Assembly: GCA_021810375.1 (NCBI GenBank)
Contig: JAJZJB010000001.1
Location: 1-53,755, forward strand
DNA length: 53,755 nucleotides
Reading direction: 5' to 3'
Source of the DNA: Candidatus Micrarchaeota archaeon
GTDB lineage: Archaea > Micrarchaeota > Micrarchaeia > Micrarchaeales > CABMGC01
Shown here: in pieces, positions 648-40,508 of the stretch
Layout of the letters: every line of letters starts with the position of its first letter
How positions within the stretch are numbered: position 1 is the stretch's first letter
The notes under the pieces: generated by a model
What the model was told of the DNA's origin: nothing
Database searches by the model: none
Seen by the model: the letters and a program-made list of their open reading frames with translations, nothing else
Program-made: the position numbers and the translations under genes

Positions 648-656
648 ATACTCACT

Positions 657-2867: not shown

Positions 2868-2888
2868 CTTGATGTATAGCATAGTGGT

Positions 2889-4099: not shown

Positions 4100-4108
4100 A
4101 GTGGTTTA

Positions 4109-5518: not shown

Positions 5519-5672
5519 CGTATCGGCTCCCAGGAGCTCTATTCCTAACCGATCTACGACGACAAAAAGAGAAGAGAAAACCCTCCGAGGACACTTGAAC
5601 GTAAAGGTATTTAATTTGTCAAGCCCTTACAAATAACAACCATGCCGAAGGGTTAAAATCCTTCGACTCCTA

Positions 5673-8062: not shown

Positions 8063-8845
8063 TCAGGCAGTCTTCTTGGGCTTGAAATGCCTTGAATCAA
8101 TAAGTATCATGTGGAAGTTGCTGTCGTATCCGAGCGATGACTTGAAGATCTCGGGATCAAGCGTGATTGTGTTGTCTGAATATGGATCGTTGATGTAGAA
8201 CGCGTCCTTATCATAGCCCTTAACCACAACCCAATGCGGCGATGACTCCATGTAGGGGTTTATGGTATTTGCATCGATGAGCACTATTGGTATGTTATTG
8301 CCTGAGAGCGCCCGCTTTATGCTGTTTATTGTGACAACGCTGTGGTCCTCCTGAACATTCTGCGCCTGTGCCTTTGCCTTTATCTCATTGTATGAAGCGG
8401 TTAGGGTGTCCAGGTTTATGTTCTCGTATACTGCAAGCTTTCTGTCATAGCCCTCTTCCTTCATGTTGCTCACTATAGAGACCCCGGCTCCGCGCTTTGC
8501 GAGCGCATATGCCAAGCCATACTTGGATCCGTGCCATACGCTACCGTTGACTGCTTCCTGCCAGATGTCATACTCGTGCTCTTTCTTGAACTGGAAATTC
8601 TTGTTTATGTACTTGAGTACCATCATGGCGCATGCGGCGCTGCTAGTGAAGTCCTCAGTCTGAGGGTAATGGGGTATGTCGAACATGACCTTGTCCTTTA
8701 TCTTTGAGCCGCTTTTGGCCTTGGCGACTCTGCTTGCAGCTGTCTTCTTGACATGCTTTGCCTGCTTCCTCTGTCTCTTTGAGGAGTTTCCACTAATTCT
8801 CTTTGAGTTCTTACTTGACTTTTTTGTCGGTTTTGCCATGTTCAT
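8063..8845 (-). CDS. Peptidase C39-like (papain-fold) cysteine protease with a Lys-rich N-terminal tail
   Basis: Candidate catalytic residues are Cys in TSSAACAMMVLKY, His in SPHWVVVKGYD and Asp in YINDP. Confidence 0.55.
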   Translation of the reverse strand: MNMAKPTKKSSKNSKRISGNSSKRQRKQAKHVKKTAASRVAKAKSGSKIKDKVMFDIPHYPQTEDFTSSAACAMMVLKYINKNFQFKKEHEYDIWQEAVNGSVWHGSKYGLAYALAKRGAGVSIVSNMKEEGYDRKLAVYENINLDTLTASYNEIKAKAQAQNVQEDHSVVTINSIKRALSGNNIPIVLIDANTINPYMESSPHWVVVKGYDKDAFYINDPYSDNTITLDPEIFKSSLGYDSNFHMILIDSRHFKPKKTA

Positions 8846-10653: not shown

Positions 10654-12444
10654 CTACATGTTGTAAAGCTCTGGATTGTCATATTCCGCAAGTGCCATGA
10701 GCAACCCTGCATGCGGAAAGAGCTGCGGGAAGTTGCCCCTGGGCTCCCATGTCTTTGGCTCTAGGTGTTCACCGAAGAAAAGCAGGTCCGTTGAGCAGCT
10801 TATGAGCTTCTTTATCACCGCGTTTGCCTTCTTGGAGTCGCCCATGCGCATATAGACACGAGCAAGCCAGGTGCTTGGAAGAGTGAATGGACGCATGATA
10901 TCCTTGCCCAGGAAGTCGTGTTTGTAGCGGAGGAGCAGGCCAGGCTCTATCATAAGGTCCTTTTCTATGCGCTTCAGCGTTGCTACGAAGCGCTTGTCCT
11001 TGGCATCTATAAACCCGTAGAGCGGCAGTGTCAGCAGCGACGCGTCCACTTCGTTAGCGCCATAATATTTGACGAAGCCTCCCGACTTAGCTGAGACGCC
11101 CTTTTTGAGTATGTAATCCCTTAGCCTATTGCCGAATGTTTCCCATTCCTTGGCCTTCTCTGAGTAGCCTATCATCTGCGCGATCTTGGCTGCACGGTCT
11201 ACGGCCACCCATTCCATCACCTTTGTATGCACATAATGCCGTCGCGTCTCCCCTATAAGCTGGCCGCGTTGTCTCTCCTCCCAGATGCTTGTGCTCTCCC
11301 TGTCCCACGAATCTTTGGTCCATTGAACTATCGACTCGATTGCCCACCAGCTCTCAACGGCATATTCTGTAGACTCGGTTAGCATTAGATATGTATACAG
11401 CGCATTCATGAATGCGCCCTCCACGTCCATCTGGAGCTGCATGTATGCGGCATTGCCCACCCTGACCGGCCTGGATCCAAGATGCCCGTTGAGCCAGCCC
11501 ATCGTCTCCTCAGGCGGAGGAGGGGTTCCGTCTATGGTATATAGAGGGTGGTCGAAGCTCTTTGACGAAGGATCGATAACGGCAAGCATGAAATCAATTA
11601 TTCTCCTGGACTTTGCAAGATGGCCTATGTTAGCAAGCGCTTCGGCAGCATAGGAAGCATCCCTTATCCAGAGATACCTATAGTCCCAATTCCTGTTCAT
11701 GCCCACAATCTCCGGCAGTGATGTGGTAGGGGCAGCAACTATGGCTCCTGAAGGCTGGTACATGAGTCCAAGCACTGTTGCTATAGAGCGCTTGTACGCA
11801 TCGTTGTACATGTTGATCTCCTTGGCTAGCATTATCTGGTCGTGCCAGTAGTCTATAGCCTTATTGAGCGCGTCCCTCGGCTCCGGATATACGAAGCCTT
11901 TATTGCTGAAGATACCGTACCTGAGGTCTTTAGAGTAGACTGCAAATATGTTTCCTTTTCCGGGAAAGAACCTGATTATGCCCTCGTCAACAACAGTATG
12001 CTTGCCAGTTATACTGACCTCAAGGCCTTCCTGGGAGGATGTGTTCTTGAATATCAGCCCATTGTCTACGTAATCGATGCTTGCGTTTGTTAGCCCATAC
12101 CCAAAAAGGGGGTTTATATCAACAGTGAAAGGCACCTTGGAGTCGTATATGCGTATTATCCCTGATAGGCCTATTGGCAAGGCATCAGTAACCTCGAGCT
12201 TGCCCTTTGATGTGGTAAAGGTATTCCTGAGCACAAGGCTGTCGCCCACGTATGAAGACACAAGCTTGTAGTCCGCATCGGGCTTGACAGAAAAGTATCC
12301 TCCAGTCCTGTCGTCAAGTATCTTCGAGAATATAGAAGGCGAATCGAATTTCGGGCAGGGGAACCAGTCGATGCTTCCTTCGGACTCTATCGCCGAAGTC
12401 AGGCAGTTCGATAGGAATGCCCATTTTCTTCCCGATGTCGTCAT
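10654..12444 (-). CDS. Glycoside hydrolase family 15 (glucoamylase/trehalase-like)
   Basis: NWDYRYLWIRDASY, the (alpha/alpha)6-type C-terminal region and FPQLFPHAGL; 596 aa. Confidence 0.8.
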   Translation of the reverse strand: MTTSGRKWAFLSNCLTSAIESEGSIDWFPCPKFDSPSIFSKILDDRTGGYFSVKPDADYKLVSSYVGDSLVLRNTFTTSKGKLEVTDALPIGLSGIIRIYDSKVPFTVDINPLFGYGLTNASIDYVDNGLIFKNTSSQEGLEVSITGKHTVVDEGIIRFFPGKGNIFAVYSKDLRYGIFSNKGFVYPEPRDALNKAIDYWHDQIMLAKEINMYNDAYKRSIATVLGLMYQPSGAIVAAPTTSLPEIVGMNRNWDYRYLWIRDASYAAEALANIGHLAKSRRIIDFMLAVIDPSSKSFDHPLYTIDGTPPPPEETMGWLNGHLGSRPVRVGNAAYMQLQMDVEGAFMNALYTYLMLTESTEYAVESWWAIESIVQWTKDSWDRESTSIWEERQRGQLIGETRRHYVHTKVMEWVAVDRAAKIAQMIGYSEKAKEWETFGNRLRDYILKKGVSAKSGGFVKYYGANEVDASLLTLPLYGFIDAKDKRFVATLKRIEKDLMIEPGLLLRYKHDFLGKDIMRPFTLPSTWLARVYMRMGDSKKANAVIKKLISCSTDLLFFGEHLEPKTWEPRGNFPQLFPHAGLLMALAEYDNPELYNM

Positions 12445-12451
12445 AAAATCA

Positions 12452-13285
12452 CTATAGAGCAGTAGCTGCGCTTATTTCCTTGGCCTTAAGCATCAGGTCG
12501 TCTGCCATAGGCATGCGTGTCCTTGAACTTATTTTAATTAGGACTTTTTGCGTGCCTGAGAGGTCGTTCCTGTCTGCCAGGTATTTCGCAAGGTAGTAGT
12601 AAGCGTTGATCTCCCCGATATCGAGTAGTGGCCTGAGCAATTTCTCCGCGTTCTTCCCGCCAGCCCGTATTGTGTAGGCAAGGTTCGAGTAGGGATTTAC
12701 CGGGGTTTGCCGTTGCTTGTTCAGTTCATTGAGCAGCAGATGCACATGTGCCAGCCTCTTCAGTTTCATCTCGGATATAAACTTCGTGTATAAGTATAGC
12801 CAGTCGTCTCCTTTCGCAGCCTTGTTTATTGTGAATATGGAAGCATACATCATCTCCTTGGCTTTGGAGAGAAGGTGCATGGAATTGCTGGAATTCTTGT
12901 TGTACTCGTCGTTCCTCTTGTCGGCATTTGAGTACATGAATCCTCCCAGCGCGTAGTTAACCCCGTGGTAGGTGTAGTCTGAAAGAACCATGTAGACATT
13001 GCCAACACCGTAGAGCACTAAAGGGTCTGCAGATGCCTCTAGAGGGGCTATTGCGCCGATTGCAGAAACGAGATCGCCCTTTATAGTTGCCTCGTGTGCA
13101 GCAGTGAATGCGGTAGCTGCACTGCTGTCCATTTTATGTTCGGCGTCACTTGCTACATACATCTCGCAGAAATGGCAGAACGCACCAGCGGGATTGGCAG
13201 AAAGCACCGCAGAATTGCAGGAAGGGCATGTTTCCTCCGAGAATTTAATCTTGTCAAGCCTTTTCAGATACCCGGAAACATCCAT
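12452..13285 (-). CDS. Hypothetical protein with an N-terminal zinc ribbon (CPSC..CHFC) and a helical C-terminal region
   Basis: Clean 277-aa ORF with a TATA-like TTTATAAA about 25 nt upstream. I recognise no family. Confidence 0.4.
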   Translation of the reverse strand: MDVSGYLKRLDKIKFSEETCPSCNSAVLSANPAGAFCHFCEMYVASDAEHKMDSSAATAFTAAHEATIKGDLVSAIGAIAPLEASADPLVLYGVGNVYMVLSDYTYHGVNYALGGFMYSNADKRNDEYNKNSSNSMHLLSKAKEMMYASIFTINKAAKGDDWLYLYTKFISEMKLKRLAHVHLLLNELNKQRQTPVNPYSNLAYTIRAGGKNAEKLLRPLLDIGEINAYYYLAKYLADRNDLSGTQKVLIKISSRTRMPMADDLMLKAKEISAATAL

Positions 13286-13320
13286 GATGGGATTTATTCA
13301 ATGCAGAATTTATAAACCCG

Positions 13321-13983
13321 TCATTTCTTTTGCAGTACAAGGAAGAGATGCATCCTGTCGAATGGTTCAAGGTTTATGGACTCGAGCACCTTGAATGATG
13401 CAGACACTCTTTCTATGAACTCCTTGAATACTGCCTTTGGATCCTTGGACACATCTATGCTTTGCGACTTTACGGCAACATACGCAAGCCCTTTGCTACT
13501 TAGCAGGACTGCATTCCTTATGAGAATATCTGCCTGGTCAGGCGCAGCTATGTCCTGGTATATTACGTCGGGTTTTCCGACATCTTCGGAATAGGCTTCG
13601 ACTTTCCTTGCGTCCTGAAGGATGGGCAGTATGTTCTCCCTGGATTCGCAGAGCTCAAGCAGGTCGCGCATGCTCCTTTCTGATATCTCCACTGCAAATA
13701 TGCTTCCTTTGCTTCCGACTATGTCACTTACGTGGCTTACGGTAGTGCCTGTGGCTGCGCCCAGGTATAGCACTCTGGACCCCTCTCTGAATCCCATATG
13801 CTTCATCCCGCCGATTATAGCCGCTGCAAGCTTGCTTCTGTATGGATTCCAGGTTCTGTACTCCTTGCTGTCGTACCCTATCAAGTCCTCGTCATATACC
13901 TTCTTTCCGGGAACCATATTCAGTGTTGCGAGTTTTCCGTCAATTCTGAACACGCCGTTGAAGATCGTCTCGATTGTAACCAT
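13321..13983 (-). CDS. flpA: Fibrillarin-like rRNA/tRNA 2'-O-methyltransferase
   Basis: MVTIETIFNGVFRIDGKLATLN.., RTWNPYRSKLAAAI, VLYLGAATGTTVSHVSDIV and VIYQDIAAPDQA. The start is set at the internal ATG at 13983; the longer ORF overlaps the neighbouring gene. Confidence 0.9.
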   Translation of the reverse strand: MVTIETIFNGVFRIDGKLATLNMVPGKKVYDEDLIGYDSKEYRTWNPYRSKLAAAIIGGMKHMGFREGSRVLYLGAATGTTVSHVSDIVGSKGSIFAVEISERSMRDLLELCESRENILPILQDARKVEAYSEDVGKPDVIYQDIAAPDQADILIRNAVLLSSKGLAYVAVKSQSIDVSKDPKAVFKEFIERVSASFKVLESINLEPFDRMHLFLVLQKK

Positions 13984-14026
13984 GGTAACTAATTTATATT
14001 GAATCTTTGTATTTATAGTGGTTGCG
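13984..14026. promoter_or_regulatory. Compact divergent promoter region with two TATA-like boxes (AATTTATATT at 13991-14000, TATTTATA at 14003-14010)
   Basis: Each box lies about 24-30 nt from the start codon on the opposite side (flpA 13983, kinase 14027). This implies near-leaderless transcripts. Confidence 0.35.
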
Positions 14027-16324
14027 ATGCCCTCCCCATATCCTATCGACAGGTTGATTGGAGACATGCTAAGCGCAAGCAGGGAATCCGGCGGATTGGG
14101 GGACCTCCTTTCGAAGTCGGGCCAGAGGCTGAAGTATGCACTTAGCATTGACGACGTAATCGTGAAGGAGACACTTACAAGGAGCCCACAGATGGGCCAG
14201 GCTGATGATGTTGTGCTCAATACAGGCAAGCCTTACATAGACAACAGGCTGAGCGAATACTCCGCTTTCCCGGAGCTCATAGCGTTATACAAATCGGGTT
14301 TCAAGAGCTGCCTGATGCTCCCTATAATTGCTGACGGGAGAAGCCTTGGAATACTCACGCTGCTCTCAAAGAGCGAGGACAGGTTCGATACACAGACGCA
14401 GAATTATCTCTCGATTGTAGGGAGTGTAATAGGCACAGAAGCATACATGAAACTGGAGAAAGAGAAGAGCCTCAGCGTTGCCAGGTATTTCGATGCTGCG
14501 TTCAACAGCATACTTCCACAAGCCCTCATAGACTCTTCAGGTAGCATAGTTAAGGCTAACAAAGGCCTTATGAACCTTGTTGATACTCCGGCGAAGGACA
14601 TGCAGGGGAGGAATATGCGCGATTTCTTCGCGCTGACAGAAGGAAACCTTGCGGATCTGGCAAGGGGCAGGCCGATAGAGGTAAGAAGCACGCTCTATCC
14701 GGAAAGGGATTTCGTGATGACGTCGAGCAAGGCAAGCGAGAAGCTTATGCATGTGCTCATACAGGATGAGACGGAACAGGTGAAGTTGGAGGAGAGGGCA
14801 CGGCTCTTCGACTATGGCGAGGAAGTTTACATGCTGCTTGGAAACGACTTCAGGGTTCTCTGGACCAGCAGCAACAGCGACAAGGTCCTGCGCGTGCATC
14901 CCGATGCGCTCTCCGGAATAAGGCTTACTGACATAATAGCCAATTCCGACGGGATCGAGAATCAACTGAGCAGCATGGCCGAGTCCGGGATGAGCAAGCA
15001 GGTCCGGCTCAACCTTGGCAATGACCTCTTTGCAGAGGCAAAGATAACAATACTGAAGAACCCCACAGGATATTCGTGCATAATATCGGGGGATTATGAG
15101 AAGAAGATAGCGACGGCGAAGAGATTCGCAGAAGACTTGATACAGCTGTCGGGTGACCTTGTAATCAAGCTTGATATCATGGGGTCGGTATCTGCATTTA
15201 ATAGATCAGCAGAGAAGCTGCTTGGCTACAAAAACAGTGAAGTGGTCAGTGTTCCTGTCTCAAGCCTGTGCGCAGACTCAGAGAGCCAGTCAAGGCTCAA
15301 TGACGCCTTGCCAAGGGCCAAGAAGAATGGCATGGTAACAGGACTCTATCTAAGCATGAGGCCACGTGGCAATTCTGACAATGTGCCGATAGATGCAAGC
15401 GTGCTCAGCATGACCGACGACGCAGGGGTGCACTTCGGATACATGATAACGGGCAAGGAGCTGCTGACCAAGCTCAGGATGGAGGACCTGGAGAAAGTCG
15501 CTGATGACGCGCAGAGGAAGCTGACTAAGGAGGCGGCTGAAAGCGACCTCAAGACCCAGTTCATATACAACATATCTCATGATCTCAAGACTCCGCTCAC
15601 AAGCATACAGGGCTATTCCAAGCTCATGATACGCGGGGATTTCGGGGCTGTGACAGAAGACCAGAGAAGCGCGCTGGAAACCATATCTGCGGAAAGCGAG
15701 AGGCTCAAGCAGCTCATACTCCAGATACTTGACGTGGCAAAGCTGGAATCGAAGAAGATAAGGCTGGACATCCAGCGCGTCAACCTGAGTGAAATAGCAG
15801 GCAATCCAAGCATTAACGCACTTGCAGAGAGGGCAAAGGCGCAGGGCCTTGAGTTCTCAATAAACGTGGATTACAATGTGCCAGACGTAAATGCAGATCC
15901 AAATAGGCTGATACAGGTTTTTGTTAACCTAATAGACAATGCGCTAAAATTCACAGAGAAAGGCAGCATACGCGTCAATGTAATCAGGAAGGGGAAGAAT
16001 GTCAGGGTCGAGGTTGTGGATACTGGGCTGGGCGTAAAAGAGGAGGAGCGGGCGAAGCTGTTCAAGAAGTTCTACCAGGTCTCTAGGAAGGACCTGACTA
16101 TGCAGCCTAAAGCAGGCACTGGGCTGGGCCTCTCGATAGTTAAGGAAATAGTCAGCATGCACGGCGGCAGGGTGGGCATAAATTCCGGGGGATTGGGCAA
16201 GGGAAGCGTTTTCTGGTTCACCATACCTCTGGAGAAGAAAAAGAAGAGGGCGCAGGATGAGCAGCAGAAGCAAGGTCCGGATAGTTCCCAGCAGGATGCG
16301 CCTGCGGGAACAGAAGTGGAATAG
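14027..16324 (+). CDS. Sensor histidine kinase with GAF and multiple PAS-like domains
   Basis: H-box ISHDLKTPLTSIQGY. N-box NLIDNALKF. G-boxes DTGLGV and GTGLGLSIVKEIV. A GTG at 14018 is an alternative start. Confidence 0.9.
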   Translation: MPSPYPIDRLIGDMLSASRESGGLGDLLSKSGQRLKYALSIDDVIVKETLTRSPQMGQADDVVLNTGKPYIDNRLSEYSAFPELIALYKSGFKSCLMLPIIADGRSLGILTLLSKSEDRFDTQTQNYLSIVGSVIGTEAYMKLEKEKSLSVARYFDAAFNSILPQALIDSSGSIVKANKGLMNLVDTPAKDMQGRNMRDFFALTEGNLADLARGRPIEVRSTLYPERDFVMTSSKASEKLMHVLIQDETEQVKLEERARLFDYGEEVYMLLGNDFRVLWTSSNSDKVLRVHPDALSGIRLTDIIANSDGIENQLSSMAESGMSKQVRLNLGNDLFAEAKITILKNPTGYSCIISGDYEKKIATAKRFAEDLIQLSGDLVIKLDIMGSVSAFNRSAEKLLGYKNSEVVSVPVSSLCADSESQSRLNDALPRAKKNGMVTGLYLSMRPRGNSDNVPIDASVLSMTDDAGVHFGYMITGKELLTKLRMEDLEKVADDAQRKLTKEAAESDLKTQFIYNISHDLKTPLTSIQGYSKLMIRGDFGAVTEDQRSALETISAESERLKQLILQILDVAKLESKKIRLDIQRVNLSEIAGNPSINALAERAKAQGLEFSINVDYNVPDVNADPNRLIQVFVNLIDNALKFTEKGSIRVNVIRKGKNVRVEVVDTGLGVKEEERAKLFKKFYQVSRKDLTMQPKAGTGLGLSIVKEIVSMHGGRVGINSGGLGKGSVFWFTIPLEKKKKRAQDEQQKQGPDSSQQDAPAGTEVE

Positions 16325-20836: not shown

Positions 20837-20848
20837 AGATCAATGAGA

Positions 20849-20892
20849 TATTGCAACTATATTATGTTGCTGTAAGAATTCTTCTTGTTTTA
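20849..20892 (+). repeat. Direct repeat copy A (38 of 44 positions identical to 25300-25343), immediately after the priS stop
   Basis: TATTGCAACTATATTATGTTGCTGTAAGAATTCTTCTTGTTTTA versus TATTGCAACTATAGTATGTTGAAGTAAAGATTCTTCTTCTTTTA. Weaker similarity extends about 15 nt on each side. Confidence 0.8.
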
Positions 20893-21042
20893 GCTCTGAA
20901 GAAATGCTAATACCGCATTAGAATCGTAATGCCCCATAAAGAATGGTGAATACCGATAGTAGACCTTGTTTGCTATTAGGATGAACACCGTATTTGCAGT
21001 GAAGGTTCAGTATCGCTGATCAGAGAGCATAGGTACGCAAAA

Positions 21043-24000
21043 TTATGGACTGGCTGATGAAGGCAGCAATGCGGCCTCTACCGAAACGTATGAATCAGCA
21101 GCCTGGGAGATACCAGATATGGTGTAGGTTCCAGATGGTTGTGACTTGCAGTATGCGATTGCAACAGTTGCTGTGCCTGATGTACCCATACCCTCGGAGA
21201 CCTGAGTCTGACAATCAGATGGGAATGTGATTGATGTGCATGTGAAATAGCCGCATGCAGCAAGAAGAAGAACGTTCGAGGTTGACGGGAGTGTGTAACT
21301 TGAGGAGAAGCTTCTTACTCCGTTGAATGTTGTTGGGGAATTTATAACATTGTAGCTGCCTGCGGTTATTCCGTTGAAGCCCATAATACCAAGGACTTGC
21401 CATTCTGATTTGGTGCTGGTGGCTGTGCATGTGGGTGATGTCTGGCTGCCTGAAGAAGCATACCCATGCGATGTCACTATGTCATTGCTCCAGCTGTATG
21501 ATGTCATGGGATAGTTATAGTTTGCACCTGCACAGAAGTAGAGGCTGCAGCCTGGGGATGCGGATACAAGACCGTACCCTGTCTCACCGAAAGTGCAAGA
21601 TGCAGCAGTGACTGTAACCACGCTTGGCACGGAACATGTTCCGATGCTGGTATCGCATGATTCCATCACGTAATCGCCCGTGGCAAGTCCGTTGAGTGGG
21701 TATGACACAGTGGTTGTGCCTGTTGCAACGACATTGTTAGGAGTACATGTGGTCCCGGAGCAGTCTTTTATGTCCACCGTGTGCCCTGTTAGGGTTGTTG
21801 CACCGATTGCATTGTCGTCTGCAGCACCTTGAGGTAGTGAATTTCCAGAGGAGAAGGTGAGTGTTGGGGGTATGCCCCCGCTGCCGCTGAGGAGTGCGGC
21901 TTCGACTGAGAAGTATACGTTTGGATTCACTGATGGTGTTGTGCCTGATATAGTGTAGGTGCCAGATGGTTGTGACTGGCAGTATGCGATTGCTACTGTA
22001 GCGTTATTGGTGTTGCCTACATTCTCTGAAACTTTCGAAACACAACCTGATGGGAATGTGATTGATGTGCATTGAGTATAACCGCATGCAACAAGAAGAA
22101 GAACGTTTGAGGTTGATGTGAGCCCATAACTTGAGGAGAAGTTAGTACCTGTTCCAGAGTTGCCTCCCGTTCTGTTGAATGTTGTTGGGTAATTTATAAC
22201 GTTGTAGCTTCCTGCGGTTATTCCGTTGAAACCTATAATTCCTATAACTTGAGAGCCTAATCCGCCGCTGTTAGCCGTGCATGTAGGTGATGTCTGGCTA
22301 CCTGAGGAGGCAGAATTAGAAGAGGTTACTACATCATTGCTCCAACTGTATGATGTCATGGGATAGTTATAGTTTGCGCCTGCACAGAAGTAGAGGCTGC
22401 AGCCTGGGGATGCGGATACAGAACCGTATCCGGTCTCACCGAAAGTGCAAGATGCGGCAGTGACTGTAACCACGCTTGGCAGGGAACATATTCCGATGCT
22501 GGTATCGCAGGATTCCATGACGTAATCGCCCGTGGCAAGTCCGTTGAGTGGGTATGACACAGTGGTTGTGCCTGTTGCAAGGATGTTGTTAGGGGTGCAT
22601 GTGGTCCCGGAGCAGTCTTTTATGTCCACGGTGTGCCCTGTTAGGGTTGTTGCACCGATTGCATTGTCAGTTGCACCTTGAGGCAGAGAGTTTCCAGCTG
22701 AAAAGTTGAGTGTTGGAAGTATGCCCCCGCTGCCGCTGAGGAGTGCGGCTTCGACTGATATTTCCGCAAGATAGTATTCTGCGGTGCCTGATATAGTGTA
22801 GGTGCCCGGTGGCTGCGATGAGCATAATGCTATTGCAACGGTTCCGTTATATGAAGTGCCTATATTTTCCGAGACTAGCATCGGACAGCCGGCTGGGAAT
22901 GTAATTGATGTGCATGGAGCCCCACGACCTTCACCGCATGAGACAAGAAGAAGAACGTTTGAGGTTGATGTGAGCCCATAACTTGAGGAGAAACTACTGC
23001 TTACTCCGTTGAATGTTGATGGGGAATTTATAACGTTGTAGCTTCCTGCGGTTATTCCGTTGAAGCCTATAATTCCAAGAGCTTGCCATTCTGGGCCGCC
23101 TGCGTTGTCGACCGTGCATGTGGGTGATGTCTGGCTGCCTGAAGAAGCATATGGGGGTGGTGATGTTACTACGTCATTGCCCCAGCTATATGATGTCATG
23201 GGATAGTTATCGTTTGCGCCTGCACAGAAGTAGAGGCTGCAACCTGATGCAGCAGTCAGTGTGTTCGAGCCGATATTTCCTGCTGAGTCGCAGTATAGCG
23301 TTGACGACTGTATCGATGGCATTACTGTAACTGCATATGTCTTCGAATATGCGAGTGCATTGGCATCTTCGGCCTCGAAGACATAGTTGCCGATGGCGAG
23401 TACGTTGAGGTTGAATGACGCAGTGGTTGTGCCTGTTGCAATGACGTTGTTAGGAGTGCAGGAAAGGCCAGTGCATGATAGTATCTTCACGGTATCTCCG
23501 GTTGCGGCAGTGGTCCCTACTGCGTTGTCTGTTGTGCCCTGAAATATCGAGGTGCCGTTGGAGAACGTGAGTGTCGGTATGGAGCTGCCGCTGCCGCTGA
23601 GGAGTGCGGCTTCCACTGAAACTTCCACGTAAGGAGCTGCTGCGGAGCCCGATATGGTGTACGTGCCCGGTGGCTGCGAATAACATAATGCTATTGCAAC
23701 GGTTCCAAAGTTGTCAGCATTCAGATTTTCCATGAGCAATGTCTGGCAACCGGATGGGAATGCGATTGATGTGCATTGATAATTGCCGCATGAGACAAGA
23801 AGAAGGACCTTTGATGTCGATGAGATACTGTAGCTAGAGGAAAACCTGCTGCCTGTTCCGTTGAATGTTGTTGGGGAATTTATAACCTTGTAGCCACCTG
23901 CGGTTATTCCGTTGAAGCCTACGACTCCGAGGCCTTGATATCCTATTGATCCGTAGCTGACAGCGCTGTTATTGACAGCGGTGCATGTGGGTGATGTCTG

Positions 24001-25260
24001 ACTGCCTGAAGATGCGTATTTGAGTGCTGTCAATGTATCGATGTTCCAGCTGAATGATGTCATCGGATAATTCCAATTTGCGCCTGCACAGAAGTAGAGG
24101 CTGCAGCCTGGGGATGCGGATACATAATCATATCCGATGCTGCCTACTGCTGCGCAGTATGGAGCAGGAGGGGATGCGGTGTACGTTGCTACAACCGTAC
24201 AGTTGTAGTTCACTGCAATTATGCCATATGGACTTGTTTCCTCGCATCCAGACACTACAGGATTTGATATGGTAAGGCCGTTGGTTGCCGTAAGGGAATT
24301 TGCAAAGATGTACGTGTCCCTTGCAGTAGATGATATAGGTATAGAGATAGGGAGCTGGCTGACTGTATACACATTTCCGTTCACAGTAAGGATGCTCCCA
24401 TTTATGCCCATCGTGTTGACTGCCTCGAACGTTACCATGGTACTTGAAACAAAATCAATTACTACATTTGCAGAATAGCCGGAGAAGTTGGCGTAGACGA
24501 TGTCATTGCCTGGAGTATAGCTCAAGATGTAACTGGTTGCAGTCCCTTTGGAGTCCGTGGCCTCCTTTGACGGGCTGATGACGGGAAATGATTGATTCTC
24601 GGTGAAATTGATCCCAGCACCCTGATAAGGATTGCCTAGCAGGTATACACTTGCAGTAAGTACGTCTTCCTGCCCACTTGCAATTTGTGTAGTATTCTGT
24701 GCAGATAATGAGATGGAGAATGGAGTTGGGGAGATTACAGGTTGGACGTGAGTTACGGCTGAACCAGATATTGTCTCATGCGATCCGCGGCATGTCTGCT
24801 GTGACTTACCTTTAGTGCACACCGTTTCTTTTACATAGAGATCTGATGAGACTGTTGTTCCCTGTCCGTATGTGCTCGGAACGGTTACAGTGCAGATAAT
24901 CGAGCCACCGGGCAGAACAAATGAGGGTGTGCATGTACCAGTTACATTGCCACTGTTTTGAGCATTTATGATAAGGCTAGGTCCGTTGATAGGATACTGC
25001 TGCGCGTTTGAGAGTACTATTACGACTGATGAACTTGCAGTATTGCTTCCGAAGACCATGTCCTTGCATGAGAGCGCGGTAGATATGATACATGTTGAGG
25101 GCGCAGCGGTAGAGGAAGTGAGTCCCAGCACGACTATGACTGCCAGAGCAGCGACAATTATGAGCAGCGCCCAGCCATACGTTACAAGATATTCCATTGC
25201 AGACTGAGCAGTTGTACTGCCAGATCTTGGAGATTTGTACCTTTTTTGATGCCGAGACAT
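21043..25260 (-). CDS. Giant (1405 aa) surface protein: class III signal peptide/type IV pilin-like N-terminus, pilin-like Cys domain, Ig-like region, then four tandem ~285-aa Cys/Ser/Thr-rich repeats
   Basis: N-terminus ..RSGSTTAQSAMEYLVTYGWALLIIVAALAVIVVLGL. GCSLYFCAG recurs at residues 385, 673, 953 and 1237. The frame is uninterrupted. Confidence 0.8.
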   Translation of the reverse strand: MSRHQKRYKSPRSGSTTAQSAMEYLVTYGWALLIIVAALAVIVVLGLTSSTAAPSTCIISTALSCKDMVFGSNTASSSVVIVLSNAQQYPINGPSLIINAQNSGNVTGTCTPSFVLPGGSIICTVTVPSTYGQGTTVSSDLYVKETVCTKGKSQQTCRGSHETISGSAVTHVQPVISPTPFSISLSAQNTTQIASGQEDVLTASVYLLGNPYQGAGINFTENQSFPVISPSKEATDSKGTATSYILSYTPGNDIVYANFSGYSANVVIDFVSSTMVTFEAVNTMGINGSILTVNGNVYTVSQLPISIPISSTARDTYIFANSLTATNGLTISNPVVSGCEETSPYGIIAVNYNCTVVATYTASPPAPYCAAVGSIGYDYVSASPGCSLYFCAGANWNYPMTSFSWNIDTLTALKYASSGSQTSPTCTAVNNSAVSYGSIGYQGLGVVGFNGITAGGYKVINSPTTFNGTGSRFSSSYSISSTSKVLLLVSCGNYQCTSIAFPSGCQTLLMENLNADNFGTVAIALCYSQPPGTYTISGSAAAPYVEVSVEAALLSGSGSSIPTLTFSNGTSIFQGTTDNAVGTTAATGDTVKILSCTGLSCTPNNVIATGTTTASFNLNVLAIGNYVFEAEDANALAYSKTYAVTVMPSIQSSTLYCDSAGNIGSNTLTAASGCSLYFCAGANDNYPMTSYSWGNDVVTSPPPYASSGSQTSPTCTVDNAGGPEWQALGIIGFNGITAGSYNVINSPSTFNGVSSSFSSSYGLTSTSNVLLLVSCGEGRGAPCTSITFPAGCPMLVSENIGTSYNGTVAIALCSSQPPGTYTISGTAEYYLAEISVEAALLSGSGGILPTLNFSAGNSLPQGATDNAIGATTLTGHTVDIKDCSGTTCTPNNILATGTTTVSYPLNGLATGDYVMESCDTSIGICSLPSVVTVTAASCTFGETGYGSVSASPGCSLYFCAGANYNYPMTSYSWSNDVVTSSNSASSGSQTSPTCTANSGGLGSQVIGIIGFNGITAGSYNVINYPTTFNRTGGNSGTGTNFSSSYGLTSTSNVLLLVACGYTQCTSITFPSGCVSKVSENVGNTNNATVAIAYCQSQPSGTYTISGTTPSVNPNVYFSVEAALLSGSGGIPPTLTFSSGNSLPQGAADDNAIGATTLTGHTVDIKDCSGTTCTPNNVVATGTTTVSYPLNGLATGDYVMESCDTSIGTCSVPSVVTVTAASCTFGETGYGLVSASPGCSLYFCAGANYNYPMTSYSWSNDIVTSHGYASSGSQTSPTCTATSTKSEWQVLGIMGFNGITAGSYNVINSPTTFNGVRSFSSSYTLPSTSNVLLLAACGYFTCTSITFPSDCQTQVSEGMGTSGTATVAIAYCKSQPSGTYTISGISQAADSYVSVEAALLPSSASP
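21046..24165 (-). repeat. Intragenic tandem repeat array, four units of ~840-865 nt (the last is truncated)
   Basis: TGCACAGAAGTAGAGGCTGCA recurs on the + strand near 21531, 22381, 23221 and 24085. The spurious + strand ORFs at 21429, 23118 and 24054 are paralogous. Confidence 0.9.
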
Positions 25261-25299
25261 GTAATGATAGTATACGAGAAAGTTAAAGATTTAAAAAGG

Positions 25300-25343
25300 T
25301 ATTGCAACTATAGTATGTTGAAGTAAAGATTCTTCTTCTTTTA
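25300..25343 (+). repeat. Direct repeat copy B, inside the divergent promoter region between the giant gene and rpl15e
   Basis: See copy A. Confidence 0.8.
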
Positions 25344-26202: not shown

Positions 26203-26892
26203 CTAGTGCTTGCTCTCCTTGCGCATCGCGTTCTCAATCCTTTCCCTTGCCGCATCCTTTATGGCAAGCTCCTGGGCCTCGGTAAGCATGGCTCCCCTGA
26301 AATCCGCGAAATCCAGGTTTTTCGCGTGGGGCAGGTTCTTAGTCTCCCTAAGGTCGGTGCCGAAGAACATGGCGCCGGCGATGTTTGTTCCGAGAAAATC
26401 CAGGCCAGTTGCAGACTTGAGGTTGCTGAAGTCTGCACCCTCTGCATCGGCGTATCTCACGCTTGCTCCGGCCATGTCTGATCCCCGAAAACTTGTGCTA
26501 ATCAGGCATGTTCCTGATCCGGAGAACGACGCGCCTTTTAAGTCGCACTCTCCGAATTCCGTGAAGAAGAGGTATGACCTGTCGAAGACGCCATTCTGTA
26601 TGTCGCACCTGTAAAACGAGAGGTTGTGCACAAGGGAATGGACCCCGGTGAATGTTGCGGGCAACGTCCTGTACGGCACATCGCCTCCAGAAGGACCTTC
26701 CTTTTTCATTATATTGTTCCTTATGATCTGACCCTCAAACCTGCACTCGCTCCTGCTAGAATATGTTCGTTTCATTATGGCTTCAAGCACTTCTGTAGGC
26801 TTGGTGATTCTTGGCAGTTCCACGAACTGTTCCTGCTTCTTTGCAGGACCCATAATAAATATTCTAGGACTTCCAGGCACTTCACAGCCCAC
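26203..26892 (-). CDS. Pentapeptide-repeat protein
   Basis: Consecutive A(D/N)LxG-type repeats: CDLKGASFSGSG.., FRGSDMAGASVRYADAEGADFSNLKSATGLDFLGTNIAGAMFFGTDL. Confidence 0.85.
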   Translation of the reverse strand: MGCEVPGSPRIFIMGPAKKQEQFVELPRITKPTEVLEAIMKRTYSSRSECRFEGQIIRNNIMKKEGPSGGDVPYRTLPATFTGVHSLVHNLSFYRCDIQNGVFDRSYLFFTEFGECDLKGASFSGSGTCLISTSFRGSDMAGASVRYADAEGADFSNLKSATGLDFLGTNIAGAMFFGTDLRETKNLPHAKNLDFADFRGAMLTEAQELAIKDAARERIENAMRKESKH

Positions 26893-34370: not shown

Positions 34371-34883
34371 ATGGAGCCAGTCGAGAGCATACGAAAAGCC
34401 CAGTCAGCTATGGAATACCTGATGACCTATGGCTGGGCCCTGCTGATAATAACCATAGCTATGGGTGTGCTCTTCTACCTCGACTTCTTCAACGGCGTAG
34501 CAACAGTTCAGTCAACATGCATATCCTCGACAGGGTATTTGTGTACGGGCCTCACCATAAATTCCACAGGCTATGCCATAGTAACCTTAGGGCAGACTGG
34601 AGGATACCCAATCACAGTTACAGGGATTGCATGTACTAATAGCACCACGCCTCCGTCGACGTTTGTCTCGATCTCCGGAGCGATATTGCAGGATACAGGC
34701 ACATCCAAGTTCGTATTCCAATGCCCCGGAGCTGCAGGCCCCATAGGCAAGGCATATAGAGGATACTTATGGATGGTGTATGATACCGAGTCACAATCAG
34801 ATTTAGTAGTAAGAATAGCCACCTTCAGCGCGCAGGTTGTCACCAATGCAGGTATGGGAACGGGATTTGGCTCAAATACATGA
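34371..34883 (+). CDS. Archaeal type IV pilin-like protein (class III signal peptide)
   Basis: ..IRKAQSAMEYLMTYGWALLIITIAMGVLFYL followed by a Cys-containing beta-rich domain; 170 aa. Confidence 0.75.
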   Translation: MEPVESIRKAQSAMEYLMTYGWALLIITIAMGVLFYLDFFNGVATVQSTCISSTGYLCTGLTINSTGYAIVTLGQTGGYPITVTGIACTNSTTPPSTFVSISGAILQDTGTSKFVFQCPGAAGPIGKAYRGYLWMVYDTESQSDLVVRIATFSAQVVTNAGMGTGFGSNT

Positions 34884-35284
34884 GATGTTATCTGTCCAGG
34901 CAGCATAGGCACTTTTACCCGACAACAGTAACTTATACAACGTATGACTGCAGTGGGAATGCCGGAACATAAGGGCCCTGTGTCTCAGGAAACGGTGGTT
35001 CCGGAGGTAGCAATGGCGGGAATGGCGCCAATGGAGATGCTTCTTACGCGCTATGAGGTACAGGTAGCGGCAATGGTGCAGGAGGTGCAGAGTACAGTGG
35101 GGGAAACGGGGGGAGCGTTACTCTGAGCTGGGCAGGTGCAGACTGTCCGATATAGCAGTGCACGCGTTTTCCGACGTTATAGGCATATGGCCAGGTATTT
35201 ACCTCGGTAATTCCCCTATCACCCTCGGAGAGAAAGAATTATAAAAGCAATTGTCGTAGTAATCGCAGGCGATTGGTGATAAGA

Positions 35285-35656
35285 ATGGGAGTTTTCGACA
35301 AGCTTGGGCAGACATTTGGTTCTGCGAAGGAGATAAACGTAGAGGACTATATGAATTCGGTAGAGATGGACGACGTCGACTTGCTGCATGAACCTGCAGA
35401 CATGTACGTTAAGCCTGTTTCTCTGGTAAGCGAGGACGATGTGAAGCCCATAGAAGAGGAGCTGGGGAAGAAGAATATCCTGCTCCTTGACCTGACTGAG
35501 CTTAACAAGAGGCCTACGACAAAGGGCAACATAATATCAGAGCTGAAGAGATATGTCGACAAGATAAACGGCGATATAGGCCAGCTTGATGCAAACAGGA
35601 TACTTGTTACACCTGCAAAGGTAAAGATAGTGAAGAGGAAGAAGGACGGCAAGTAG
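35285..35656 (+). CDS. sepF: Cell division protein SepF (DUF552 family)
   Basis: MGVFDKLG N-terminal amphipathic segment, then KPVSLVSEDDVKPIEEELGKKNILLLDLTEL....ISELKRYVDKINGDIGQLDANRILVTPAKVKI. Confidence 0.7.
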   Translation: MGVFDKLGQTFGSAKEINVEDYMNSVEMDDVDLLHEPADMYVKPVSLVSEDDVKPIEEELGKKNILLLDLTELNKRPTTKGNIISELKRYVDKINGDIGQLDANRILVTPAKVKIVKRKKDGK

Positions 35657-36349
35657 TCATTTCAGAGCTGTTATGAGCGCATGGACCTCCTGCCTGCTAG
35701 GCTGTGCTTTGGATATGGTTCTTTTGAACACGCTCATGACAGCCTTTCTATTCCTTATATTTTTTCCTTTCAGCGTAAGTTCAAAGAGCGAATAGAGGTG
35801 CTCTAGTTCCTTTCTATCCGGTATCTGTTGGCTCATCCCTGGCCTTGGCCTTGAAAAGCTCCTGCTGGTCAGGACATAAAGCATTATTGCAAGCGCGTGG
35901 GATATGTTCAGCACAGGATATGCGGGGTTCGTGCCTATATACGCCACAATATCGCACTTGCCCAGCTCTTCTACCGTGAGTCCTGTATCGTCCCTGCCTA
36001 TGGCAAGACCTATGACCCCATCCTTCCTGATCTTCCTGCCTTGCACTCTTTTTATCGCTTCTTCAAGCATATAGACCTTGTTGAAGTCGGAGCGGGCTTT
36101 CTCCCATATGCCTGTTGTTCCAATGACAAGGTCGCAGTCCCTTATAGACTCGTCGAAAGTCTCATAGACCCGCGCGTGAGCAAGCAGCTCCCGGGCATGC
36201 TTGGCATACATGATCGACTTTGTTCCGGAGAGCTTGGCCCTGGGCTTCACGAAAGAGAGCCTCCTTATGCCGAAGTTCTTTGATACCCGCGCCATGTATC
36301 CCAGGTTTATCTGGTACTTGGGGCTTACCGCTATGACCTTTATGTTCAC
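35657..36349 (-). CDS. SPOUT-class RNA 2'-O-methyltransferase (TrmJ/LasT-like, COG0565)
   Basis: NLGYMARVSKNFGIRRLSFVKPRA, LAIGRDDTGLTVEEL and VLNISHALAIMLY. Confidence 0.75.
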   Translation of the reverse strand: MNIKVIAVSPKYQINLGYMARVSKNFGIRRLSFVKPRAKLSGTKSIMYAKHARELLAHARVYETFDESIRDCDLVIGTTGIWEKARSDFNKVYMLEEAIKRVQGRKIRKDGVIGLAIGRDDTGLTVEELGKCDIVAYIGTNPAYPVLNISHALAIMLYVLTSRSFSRPRPGMSQQIPDRKELEHLYSLFELTLKGKNIRNRKAVMSVFKRTISKAQPSRQEVHALITALK

Positions 36350-37062
36350 GCCAGCACCATGAAGGTAAGGAGTATGGTTAATGTATTGACAAGTATGTGC
36401 GCTATGATCGATGGATATAGGGAATTGGTCCTCTTGTAGACATAACCAGCTAGCACTCCGAAAATGAGTGCGGCTATGACCTCTATGCCAAATGACGAGT
36501 TATAGGTCACGTGTCCCGCTGCGAAGATCAGTGCGCTCAGTATTATGCCTATCCTGGGCACGAGAAAACCCCTGAAGAGTATCTCCTCGTTTATAGGGGC
36601 TATGAGCGAGGTAAAGACGTAGAACCATACCGGGGCCGATGCGAAAAGCACATTGACATTGCTGTTTATCGGCGTGTTAGTAACTACGCTTATTATACCA
36701 ACAATCAACTCAAGCACGAAGATCGCTATGAAAAGGAGTACCCCGATGAGTATCCTGTTTATCCCGAAGACTCCTTTTCCCTTAAGCCCCACGCTTGCTG
36801 CAATGGAGCCAAGGCTCTGCTTCTTGTAGAATACGAAATAGCAGAGGACAGATAAGGAAAAAGACATTGAGAGAGTTGCGTCGGATACAAACATGAGCGA
36901 ATTATAGCTCATATATCCGGAGTAGTAGAAATAGAGCGCCGGAACCGTGAATATTACGTTAAGTACAAGGAATATGGCCAGAAAGACAATTATGCCAATG
37001 AACTTTCCGAAATAATCGGTTTTAGTTTTCCTCGCAGTCCTCTTGGCCAATGATTTCACCAA
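36346..37062 (-). CDS. CPBP-family intramembrane glutamic protease (CAAX protease/Abi)
   Basis: Multi-TM protein with PINEEILFRGFL, FAAGH and AHILVN. TTG or GTG start. Confidence 0.8.
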   Translation of the reverse strand: MVKSLAKRTARKTKTDYFGKFIGIIVFLAIFLVLNVIFTVPALYFYYSGYMSYNSLMFVSDATLSMSFSLSVLCYFVFYKKQSLGSIAASVGLKGKGVFGINRILIGVLLFIAIFVLELIVGIISVVTNTPINSNVNVLFASAPVWFYVFTSLIAPINEEILFRGFLVPRIGIILSALIFAAGHVTYNSSFGIEVIAALIFGVLAGYVYKRTNSLYPSIIAHILVNTLTILLTFMVLA

Positions 37063-38118: not shown

Positions 38119-39153
38119 TCAGTAGAGCCTGTCGACTCCTTCCATAGCCATTGCAGCAGCGTGCTCCTTGTACTCCTTTGGGCTGCCGAATTTGGCCTTT
38201 ACTCCGGTGATTATGGACATGACGCGAACCTGGTCTGCAAGTTCCGGAAGCATGCGCGCTCCGAAAATCACATTTGCATCAGGAGCAAGGGCATCTGTAA
38301 CGCCTTCCCCGATCCTTGTTGCATCGCTTATGCTCAGGTTGCTTCCACCCACAACATGGATCAGGCCACCCTTGGCCCCTTCATAGTCAACATTGAGGAG
38401 AGGGTGTGTCCTTGTAGACCTTATTGCCTGCTGCACCCTATCCGCACCGCTGCCGGATCCAAGGCTTATAACTGCAGTACCCGTGTCCTTGACCACATTC
38501 CTAAGATCTGCAAAGTCCAGATTGATCAGGCTTGGCAGAGTTATTGTATCGGATATTCCCTTAACTGCGTTGCCGGTTATGTTGTCAACCAGCTCGAACG
38601 CCCTCTCGATAGGCAGGTTGGGCACGTATGAGAGGAGCTTGTCGTTCTCTATCACTATCGTGCAGTCAGCCTGCTTCTGGAGTTGCTCAAGCCCCCAGTC
38701 GGCCTTGAGCTTCCTGGACCTTTCAAGTGAGAATGGATAGGTTACTGTTGCTATGACCGTTGCGCCAAGCTCCCTTGCAACATTGGCCACCGTAGGTGCT
38801 GCCCCTGTTCCTGTTCCCCCACCCATGCCTGCGGCAACGAAGACCAGGTTGTAACCCTGAAGGGCTGCCTCAATCTCCCCGCGTGACATGTCAGCGCACT
38901 TTGCTGCAACTTCTGGAAATCCTCCGGCGCCAAGGCCGTTGGTTATCTCCTTGCCTATGAGTATCTTCTTGTGCGCCTTAATCATGTTCAAGTGACCTAT
39001 ATCGGTATTCACTGCCACGGTATCCGCGCTCTTTATATTGTGCGAAAAGAGCCTGTTCACTAAGTTACTTCCCTGTCCACCGACACCAACTACCGCTATT
39101 CTGGGTGTGAAGGCATCATAGTCGAATTGATTTTCTCCCATCCTGGTCACCAA
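38119..39153 (-). CDS. ftsZ: Cell division GTPase FtsZ (paralog B); an ATG at 39141 is an alternative start
   Basis: GVGGQGSN, GMGGGTGTGAAP, NTD and the C-terminal domain. Confidence 0.95.
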   Translation of the reverse strand: MVTRMGENQFDYDAFTPRIAVVGVGGQGSNLVNRLFSHNIKSADTVAVNTDIGHLNMIKAHKKILIGKEITNGLGAGGFPEVAAKCADMSRGEIEAALQGYNLVFVAAGMGGGTGTGAAPTVANVARELGATVIATVTYPFSLERSRKLKADWGLEQLQKQADCTIVIENDKLLSYVPNLPIERAFELVDNITGNAVKGISDTITLPSLINLDFADLRNVVKDTGTAVISLGSGSGADRVQQAIRSTRTHPLLNVDYEGAKGGLIHVVGGSNLSISDATRIGEGVTDALAPDANVIFGARMLPELADQVRVMSIITGVKAKFGSPKEYKEHAAAMAMEGVDRLY

Positions 39154-40259: not shown

Positions 40260-40508
40260 ACCGATCGCCCGGTAATGCAATTACAATCAATAGGTTTAAA
40301 TAGCTTTTGTAAATCTGCTGTTAGCGGAATGTGCTAAATTGCTAGGTTTTTCAGAGATTTTCCAGATTGGTTAGATTGCCAGATAACTAAACGGTAATTG
40401 CTTCTTAATGTATTTTGTAACTATGCAGGCATGTCGGCCGTATGTCGCAGAATAACAGTAGAAAAACTATTTATATGACGAAAAACCTTGGTATAGGTTA
40501 GTGGTAAG

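Follow-up and report, generated by a model that had tools for sequence, protein, structure and literature searches.

What is the role of a protein of 1405 amino acids (aa) that starts like a short archaeal pilin and then runs on into a long array of Cys-rich repeats? Such a protein is encoded in a 53,755-nt stretch of DNA from Candidatus Micrarchaeota archaeon (GenBank assembly GCA_021810375.1, contig JAJZJB010000001.1, positions 1 to 53,755), hereafter the window, by an open reading frame (ORF) at 21043..25260 on the minus strand. Host recognition and attachment in DPANN archaea are an open question, and there are few candidate attachment proteins. The preferred reading, which has about an even chance of being right, is that of an archaeal modular type IV pilin (a class-III-signal protein) acting as a multivalent adhesin. 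The observations bearing on it are the architecture of the protein, the motif of its head, the association of the head family with type IV pilus (T4P) operons, fold predictions, and the taxonomic distribution.

Protein architecture

The ORF is uninterrupted over 4.2 kb, starts with ATG, and its product has the N-terminus MSRHQKRYKSPRSGSTTAQSAMEYLVTYGWALLIIVAALAVIVVLGL. According to the ORF listing and repeat analysis, the protein consists of a pilin-like head, a Big_1-like domain, one unassigned domain, and the array (A-B)x3-A, which is formed by two repeat modules, A (~190 aa) and B (~90 aa). It contains 50 Cys (3.6%), 28% Ser+Thr, and 15 N-x-S/T sequons, and its mature part is acidic (61 D+E vs 22 K+R). 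On the Kyte-Doolittle scale the sole hydrophobic segment lies at ~aa 21-59 (19-aa windows above 1.6 start only at aa 21 to 41, with a peak of 2.88), and a C-terminal anchor was not found.

The head opens with a short, basic leader peptide, aa 1-18 (MSRHQKRYKSPRSGSTTA; 25207..25260, all positions in this and the next paragraph being on the minus strand), for which an alignment of 16 heads predicts cleavage at A18/Q19. The pilin module, aa 19-170 (24751..25206), comprises the hydrophobic helix (QSAMEYLVTYGWALLIIVAALAVIVVLGL) and a globular domain with conserved Cys57, Cys65, and Cys123. It is followed at aa 183-271 (24448..24714) by an Ig-like, more exactly Big_1-like, domain. An earlier reading of this DNA, made from the letters alone (the sequence-only reading), had placed an Ig-like stretch at ~175-265; Pfam Big_1 (PF02369) indeed matches there over its full model, but stays under the gathering threshold of 34.9 bits, scoring 26.3 bits on the full-length sequence and 30.8 bits on the fragment. 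The homologous stretch exceeds this cutoff in two relatives, L007 (44.2 bits) and L005 (35.7 bits). The domain at aa 272-363 (24172..24447), delimited by homolog coverage, has no Pfam match and ends a ~365-aa long-head unit (pilin module, Big_1, and third domain) common to the homologs P0002 and P0005-P0009.

The sequence anchors GCSLYFCAGAN, VEAALL, and CTPNN served to delimit the modules. The four A copies occupy aa 364-559 (23584..24171), 652-846 (22723..23307), 933-1129 (21874..22464), and 1217-1405 (21046..21612), the last being the C-terminus, with no membrane anchor after it. The three B copies, all Ig-like, lie at aa 560-651 (23308..23583), 847-932 (22465..22722), and 1130-1216 (21613..21873). 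Pairwise identity is 64-76% among A copies and 53-91% among B copies, the highest value belonging to B copies 2 and 3; both ranges are far above chance, and the four A modules alternating with three B modules that had been claimed earlier are thus borne out. At the DNA level the gene holds direct-repeat families in 4 copies, spaced by 831-864 nt and 63-87% identical; Tandem Repeats Finder reported no repeats, the ~850-nt period being above its 500-nt limit.

An ortholog (P0001) is present in an independent assembly, GCA_021804105.1. It has 1404 aa, is 88% identical, keeps the same architecture and 4A/3B order, and lies, as in the window, between the genes for ribosomal protein L15e and the primase small subunit PriS; the ORF is therefore not chimeric, a flaw that the sequence-only reading had named as fatal to its proposal. 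The A copies are 91-93% identical to their positional orthologs and 62-76% to paralogs, and because they are closer to the former, the A-B array is, as judged from these comparisons, old and maintained rather than an artefact of assembly. B2 and B3 share 91% and 96% identity within the two genomes, as against 84-88% between them, which suggests local gene conversion between B2 and B3. The distribution of the whole protein is very narrow, with 9 homologs among 5.8 billion proteins.

Pilin-like head

In the alignment of 16 heads, Q19 (predicted +1), L25, Y28, W30, C57, C65, and C123 are invariant, and S20, A21, E23 (+5), and G29 are nearly so. The motif thus consists of an 18-aa basic leader, QSAMEY with +1 Gln, +5 Glu, and +6 Tyr (Tyr or Phe in the family), and Y-G-W. 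The single hydrophobic helix directly follows the predicted cleavage site, and no further membrane segment occurs in the protein. Gln at +1 and Glu at +5 after a short leader form the pattern of EppA-processed Methanococcus maripaludis pilins, and E-Y, with Tyr at +6, is a feature of Flp pilins (PMC3875500). The class III signal and pilin-type helix proposed by the sequence-only reading are supported by the invariant +1 Gln, the nearly invariant +5 Glu, and the one hydrophobic helix. As for the bacterial N-methylation motif (IPR012902), no such match was reported for the protein by Pfam or NCBIfam.

The likeness of the N-terminus to a 170-aa ORF of the same window, also noted earlier, is confirmed by BLASTP, with 38% identity over 113 aa (E = 1e-12) in an alignment that covers the signal and helix and the first part of the globular domain. 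This ORF (34371..34883, plus strand) is a stand-alone pilin-like gene of the short-head type with the same head motif, and its product is 55% identical (E = 2e-52) to the head of the homolog P0004.

Modules A and B

The statement that modules A and B belong to no named family holds: neither has a Pfam or NCBIfam match or a match among Protein Data Bank (PDB) sequences. For module A, consistent Pfam matches were found in 0 of 41 aligned members, NCBIfam gave none, and the best hit of the PDB sequence search had E = 0.19; PHROGs matched 1 of the 41, spuriously. Module B has no Pfam family either, even in a protein with eight B copies.

Structure prediction and Foldseek comparison, which had been proposed as a check, were applied to both modules. 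With the 41-sequence alignment as AlphaFold2 (AF2) input, copy 3 of module A is modelled confidently as an all-beta domain of 16 strands, with a predicted local distance difference test (pLDDT) value of 88.9 and a predicted template modelling (pTM) score of 0.88. A shallow, 10-row AF2 run of one A+B unit reached pLDDT 63; its A part was unusable and the B part alone was used. Module B (copy 2, from the A2+B2 model) has pLDDT 80-90 and matches LILR/KIR Ig domains over ~97 columns with a root-mean-square deviation of 3.8-5.0 Å and probability 1.00, and is thus Ig-like by its predicted fold. For A, no PDB structure was matched at E <= 1e-3, the best template modelling (TM) score being 0.31, and only predicted viral proteins resemble it: six at E <= 1e-3, with many more at TMq 0.5-0.64 and probability 1.00. 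Most of them are proteins of tailed phages and lack a characterised role; mycobacteriophage 'minor tail proteins' and a 'CenC-like carbohydrate-binding' protein are among them. A link between module A and phage proteins at the level of sequence was rejected, since PHROGs gives only the one spurious match and the likeness to BFVD models is confined to the fold.

The 41 A modules share four invariant Cys and nearly invariant Y25, W41, G55, Y113, P138, G168, and Y170, and no conserved catalytic-type set (acid/base, Ser, His) was found among them. The phage-like predicted fold is a lead to a receptor- or glycan-binding role of A, and no proof of one. A bolder and rather unlikely extension would have A as a receptor-binding fold common to DPANN surface proteins (Micrarchaeota, Nanobdella, and Nanoarchaeota) and the tail proteins of tailed phages, displayed in four copies at the tip of an Epd/Tad-like pilus as the host-recognition adhesin of a Micrarchaeon. 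The wider DPANN family with its interchangeable cargos would then serve to set host range by combination, much as phage receptor-binding proteins do.

Searching 1.84 billion representative proteins exhaustively with a hidden Markov model profile of A+B yielded 55 proteins at E <= 1e-3, one of which, a WD40 protein, has neither A nor B on re-search; a broad module-A alignment used as the query of a protein search added one new protein only. On the distribution check that had been suggested, module A is rare (~55 clusters) and occurs in Micrarchaeota, Nanobdella, and Nanoarchaeota. Among the named sources of A or B are Micrarchaeia, a Nanoarchaeota archaeon (YN1_2240), and Nanobdella aerobiophila, whose MJ1_0776 figures in the literature solely as a 'pectin lyase-like' surface protein (10.1101/2023.10.27.564410).

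The two modules are independent of each other, some proteins having eight B and no A and many having one to three A and no B. A survey of the N-termini of 56 A/B-bearing proteins, the window protein included, found a class-III-like head in 22, another N-terminal hydrophobic segment in 13, and no N-terminal hydrophobic segment in 21; the last are probably fragments or have mis-called starts. DUF2341, which marks large proteins (arCOG03508) proposed as PilY1-like archaeal pilus-tip adhesins (PMC4858521), is found together with A/B in P0025, P0058, and P0013, while its match in P0046 falls short of the cutoff; the Pfam scan found no DUF2341 (PF10102) in the window protein.

Head family and its cargos

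The pattern E[YF]Lx[TS]YGW[AS][IL] was scanned over one genome per GTDB species. It occurs in at least 599 stretches, of which at least 541 were confirmed by tblastn, and the best 80 loci were taken. Nearly all of these 80 belong to Micrarchaeota, Woesearchaeota, and Nanoarchaeota (DPANN), with a few from Methanosarcinales. The closest relatives of the 1405-aa protein and of its head are found in Micrarchaeota metagenome-assembled genomes (MAGs) and in Ca. Mancarchaeum acidiphilum; the source is almost certainly a member of the Micrarchaeota (DPANN), and the earlier description of the source as a small episymbiotic archaeon is well supported because of these nearest relatives.

A T4P context is visible in part of the family. 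The gene order ATPase, ~275-aa gene, ~350-400-aa gene, and head pilin(s) recurs in seven loci of Woesearchaeota/Nanoarchaeota type (L034, L039, L058, L064, L076, L078, and L079). In the Woesearchaeota locus L034, Pfam identifies T2SSE (119.7 bits) and two T2SSF genes directly upstream of two head pilins. One ATPase with two platform genes is the mark of 'system 1' archaeal type IV filaments of methanogens and DPANN (10.64898/2026.04.22.720090). A Micrarchaeota locus, L007, has a T2SSE ATPase (115.4 bits) that divergently adjoins the gene of a 509-aa long-head protein with Big_1 and Kelch-like repeats.

Immediately 3' of the ATPase-T2SSF-T2SSF-pilin-pilin operon of L034 lies the gene of a 906-aa protein with no Pfam match (11560-14277, plus strand), a candidate operon-encoded adhesin. 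Several DPANN-type head contigs are filed under bacterial or methanogen MAGs, namely L009 and L013 (Candidatus Acidiferrales bacterium), L014 (Methanothrix), and L079 (Alphaproteobacteria bacterium), the last with a full ATPase/platform/pilin operon; all four are probably mis-binned DPANN contigs.

The sizes of 108 head-bearing ORFs counted in the fetched DNA vary widely. Plain pilin size (120-249 aa) accounts for 60 of the 108, and 4 are under 120 aa; 17 have 250-499 aa, 24 have 500-999 aa, and 3 have at least 1000 aa (the window protein, its ortholog, and one 1113-aa protein). In P0002, P0005-P0009, L005, and L007, the cargo behind the long-head unit is Kelch-like, of the Flg_new_2 type, or Cys-rich with no assignment. 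Short heads, too, can bear the A-B cassette: P0003, P0004, and P0010 (L001 1528-4206; L086 3702-6170) have one A, two or three B (two in P0004), and a Gly-rich tail. This tail is ~250 aa long, has runs of GGGGxGG, and has no Pfam match.

Head genes of 440-900 aa commonly stand in tandem arrays (L050 923-5963, L021 700-3878, L004 7579-12034, and L013), and at least nine of the best 80 loci lie on several contigs of a single Micrarchaeota MAG, YP2.bin58 (L017, L020-L022, L024, L027, L028, L036, and L037). Both features suggest, from gene arrangement and copy number, a large and expanding paralog family of pilin-headed proteins.

Proposed mode of action and alternatives

If the gene does encode a modular pilin, the basic leader (aa 1-18) would be removed between A18 and Q19 by a prepilin peptidase of the FlaK/EppA type, and the helix with the ~150-aa pilin module would be handled by Epd/Tad-like 'system 1' filament machinery encoded elsewhere in the genome. 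Because a 1,235-residue cargo cannot pack into the filament body, the most likely site of the protein would be the tip, in the role of a minor pilin, or else a very short stub. This cargo would form an extended stalk of ~nine beta-domains (Big_1-like, unassigned, four disulfide-bearing A, and three Ig-like B), estimated at ~35-40 nm when fully extended (~4 nm per domain). The pseudoperiplasm of the cultivated Ca. Micrarchaeum harzensis is 20-25 nm wide (10.1101/2021.04.28.441871), and since the estimate exceeds this width, the stalk would reach past pseudoperiplasm and S-layer, and the A modules would be exposed even on a membrane-anchored protein. Each of the four A modules would bind a ligand, possibly a glycan, the B modules would be spacers between these repeated units, and the two together would provide multivalent adhesion to another cell or surface.

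Pilus-like filaments and pilus machinery are reported for related organisms. Thin pili-like filaments occur on Micrarchaeota cells (PMC11329633), and Mancarchaeum Mia14 has two T4P loci and one FlaK-like peptidase (PMC5498576); Mia14 also carries the long-head homolog P0009.

Several findings weigh against a pilin that is built into filaments. Regarding the head itself, Pfam and NCBIfam searches up to E <= 10 recover no pilin family for aa 1-60, aa 1-170, or the full-length sequence, and the best PDB-sequence profile matches are insignificant: 8q30 AapB, the Sulfolobus acidocaldarius Aap pilus (PMC11178815), with E = 0.23 over profile positions 25-137, and 8fk7 'Flagellin' with E = 0.72. The operon-encoded short pilins with the same head likewise match no curated pilin model at E <= 10, so this head type lies outside the curated models. 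Since neither a curated model nor a solved structure matches significantly, the membership of the head in the pilins is argued from motif and context. Furthermore, where the studied EppA substrates have Gly at -1, this leader has Ala, and its -2 position holds Thr in place of Lys or Arg.

As for genomic context, no T2SSE ATPase, T2SSF platform, or A24 prepilin peptidase was found among the scanned ORFs of the 53.7-kb window, and tblastn with a DPANN pilus ATPase gave no match in it. A pilus-type ATPase lies within 10 kb in only 9 of the 80 head loci, and the examined long-head or A-bearing genes, L007 excepted, stand alone among housekeeping genes. Pilin genes distant from their machinery are normal in archaea (PMC3875500). 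Finally, some proteins that contain A or B have an N-terminal signal of the ordinary kind or a C-terminal anchor (4 of 56 being anchored); because of this distribution the two are extracellular modules of general use, frequently but not exclusively found behind pilin heads and not specific to pili.

The check for pilus machinery proposed by the sequence-only reading thus fails within the window and succeeds for the head family, whose genes lie in DPANN ATPase/T2SSF/T2SSF operons. Its suggestion of a pilus-displayed host adhesin stands in the same divided way: the presence of head-family genes in T4P operons speaks for it, the lack of machinery in the window and the stand-alone position of most relatives speak against it, and display and binding themselves we infer.

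The strongest competitor, possible and clearly less probable than the modular pilin, is a membrane-anchored surface protein that borrows a class III signal and serves as a bindosome-like free-standing adhesin or receptor, never entering a filament. Its N-terminal helix, with or without cleavage of the leader, would remain in the cytoplasmic membrane and its stalk would pass out through the S-layer, in a way similar to the sugar-binding bindosome proteins of Sulfolobus with their class III signals. This reading accords with the position of this gene and nearly all long-head genes among housekeeping genes with no pilus genes nearby, with one N-terminal hydrophobic segment as the only anchor, with a stalk comparable to or longer than the reported pseudoperiplasm (10.1101/2021.04.28.441871), and with the presence of A/B modules on C-terminally anchored proteins; non-pilin class-III-signal proteins are, moreover, established in archaea, as the bindosome shows (PMC4858521). 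However, the head is more than a signal, being a full pilin-like module of ~150 aa with homology to the short pilins of operons, its conserved +5 Glu is typical of filament-assembling subunits, and the bindosome itself needs a dedicated pair of ATPase and platform.

Considerably less probable is a structural component of the S-layer or envelope lattice, as proposed for large surface proteins of Mancarchaeum Mia14 (PMC5498576). 'Cell surface protein' is the name given to the homolog P0009, which is among the Mia14 proteins discussed there as S-layer components, and the window protein is Ser/Thr-rich and acidic with many sequons. However, no S-layer family (e.g., PF05123) was found in it by Pfam or NCBIfam at E <= 0.1, and the experimentally supported Micr_00292 has PF05123, ~101 kDa, and almost no sulfur amino acids (10.1101/2021.04.28.441871), in contrast to the 50 Cys here. 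The cargo is also hypervariable between paralogs and genomes, unlike a lattice protein, and the 9 homologs make a very narrow distribution. With no S-layer domain and a high Cys content, identity with an S-layer protein was rejected.

Marginally less probable still is an enzyme or toxin, secreted or displayed, that acts on host envelopes through a catalytic module A. The function of A is unassigned, A co-occurs in relatives with pectin-lyase-like and DUF2341/LamG-like domains (10.1101/2023.10.27.564410), and its fold resembles domains of phage tail proteins, some of which are enzymatic. What the 41 A modules conserve, however, are four Cys with Tyr, Trp, Gly, and Pro, and no catalytic-type set, and four tandem copies with Ig spacers are typical of binding modules.

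An assembly artefact or decaying pseudogene produced by repeat collapse or expansion is very improbable: ~850-nt repeats with 63-87% DNA identity can confuse assemblers, but the 4.2-kb frame is uninterrupted, the independent assembly has the 1404-aa ortholog with identical module order and synteny, and the A copies resemble their positional orthologs far more than their paralogs.

Comparison with known systems

The modular pilin reading invites comparison with the bacterial modular pilins, such as Streptococcus sanguinis PilB (von Willebrand factor A, vWA, module) and PilC (lectin module), CofB of enterotoxigenic Escherichia coli, and Vibrio cholerae TcpB (PMC8179133, PMC9934059). Models place the bulky modules of these proteins at the tips of pili, and the modules can be direct mediators of adhesion (PMC8179133). 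Shared features are an N-terminal pilin carrier with bulky effector modules, the use of one carrier for many cargos, and cargo modules that are often missing from domain databases. By analogy, the combinatorial design of one head and many cargos is the carrier-plus-effector pattern of the bacterial proteins. In contrast to them, the window protein is archaeal, bears a head of the Epd/Flp-like type (+1 Q, +5 E, +6 Y) without IPR012902, and carries ~1,235 aa of cargo in nine domains, whereas the extreme multi-domain case of the bacterial survey has 860 aa; its cargo domains, A and B, differ from theirs. It thus resembles the bacterial modular pilins by architecture and is not a member of that set, because it is archaeal and lacks the bacterial prepilin motif.

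Among archaeal systems, the Epd pilins of M. maripaludis and 'system 1' share with it the class III signal, +1 Gln, and +5 Glu (PMC3875500; PMC4858521; 10.64898/2026.04.22.720090), related short pilins in operons with one ATPase and two platforms, and pilin genes scattered from the machinery. Unlike in Epd pilins, the leader ends in Ala rather than Gly and has 18 aa vs 5-13, the head has no DUF361 or Class_IIIsignal match and bears the extra signature E-Y-L-x-T-Y-G-W, and the protein is 10-20 times larger. The DUF2341 proteins (arCOG03508, PMC4858521) are likewise large, extracellular, multi-domain, associated with archaeal T4P, and predicted to be adhesins, and their DUF2341 co-occurs with A/B. 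The window protein, however, has no DUF2341, brings its own pilin head instead of docking on minor pilins, and is encoded outside a T4P locus. Having neither the bacterial prepilin motif nor DUF2341, it is formally a member of neither the bacterial modular pilins nor the DUF2341 proteins.

The surface proteins of Ca. Mancarchaeum acidiphilum Mia14, P0009 among them, come from the same phylum, have a homologous ~365-aa N-terminal unit, and the gene also stands alone, but they carry Kelch/Flg_new_2 repeats in place of A-B modules. In the passages of the Mia14 report considered, the large proteins are discussed as S-layer components and the word 'pilin' does not appear (PMC5498576). As for the Sulfolobus bindosome, it too places a class III signal on large functional extracellular proteins; these are, however, solute-binding proteins of known folds with a dedicated Bas ATPase and platform, whereas the window protein has a full pilin-like head and an adhesin-like stalk.

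Three elements are new: a DPANN-wide archaeal pilin head with interchangeable cargos, the extreme size of the 1405-aa example, and module A, an undescribed domain family with no solved structural analogue. The signature E-[YF]-L-x-[TS]-Y-G-W would let annotators recover hundreds of pilins and pilin-headed giants now called 'hypothetical', and the large variable cargos on ~40% of the examined head ORFs extend the bacterial 'modular pilin' idea to archaea. Module A (~185 aa, four invariant Cys, confident model) could be expressed for ligand-binding tests; a cultivated organism, Nanobdella aerobiophila, has it too (MJ1_0776). Should the binding role prove true, the protein would open a molecular approach to the host specificity of Micrarchaeota-Thermoplasmatales symbioses. 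It is a good experimental lead for DPANN host attachment, every functional step of which we infer.

Neighbourhood and flanking repeat

The gene is bracketed by a direct repeat of ~48 nt. The upstream copy lies at 25292-25340 (minus strand), with a 21-nt core at 25300..25320, 40-60 nt upstream of the ATG, and the downstream copy at 20845-20893 (minus strand), with its core at 20849..20869, ~175 nt past the stop codon. The core reads CAACATA[C/A]TATAGTTGCAATA and holds the palindrome CAAC-N8-GTTG. The number of matches expected by chance is zero. A TATA-like TTTTTAAA stands ~35 nt before the ATG, just after the upstream copy. The same repeat pair flanks the ortholog in L002 (7006-7026 and 11456-11476), and the repeat was not found in the 82 other loci searched. 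With a fold z-score of -0.38, an RNA element was rejected. The repeat may be an operator, or the footprint of insertion or exchange of an adhesin cassette between the L15e and PriS genes.

The gene content of the window is otherwise archaeal housekeeping: ribosomal proteins L15e, L3, L4, and S24e, PriS, Hel308, RtcB, DNA ligase, aIF5A, two FtsZ with SepF, and Suf genes. No tRNA genes, as markers of integration, were found in the window. A pentapeptide-repeat protein is encoded between the L15e and L3 genes (26203-26892, minus strand) and at the same place in L002 (5444-6121). Two peptidase genes on the minus strand, a Peptidase_C39-like one (DUF3335, 8063-8845) and an Rce1-like CAAX protease (36346-37062), do not encode prepilin peptidases. 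The first ~6 kb may be an insertion sequence or a foreign segment: G+C at 1-6000 is 0.39-0.43 vs ~0.49 elsewhere, and a DDE_Tnp_1 transposase ORF is located at 4625-5518 (minus strand). Two tandem FtsZ paralogs (38119-39153 and 39213-40280, both minus strand) near SepF (35273-35656, plus strand) form a compact division cluster. Finally, the SufB gene (50471-53053, minus strand; 860 aa) is split by an intein with a LAGLIDADG homing endonuclease, its Pfam domains being SUFBD_core, Intein_splicing, LAGLIDADG_3, and Hint.

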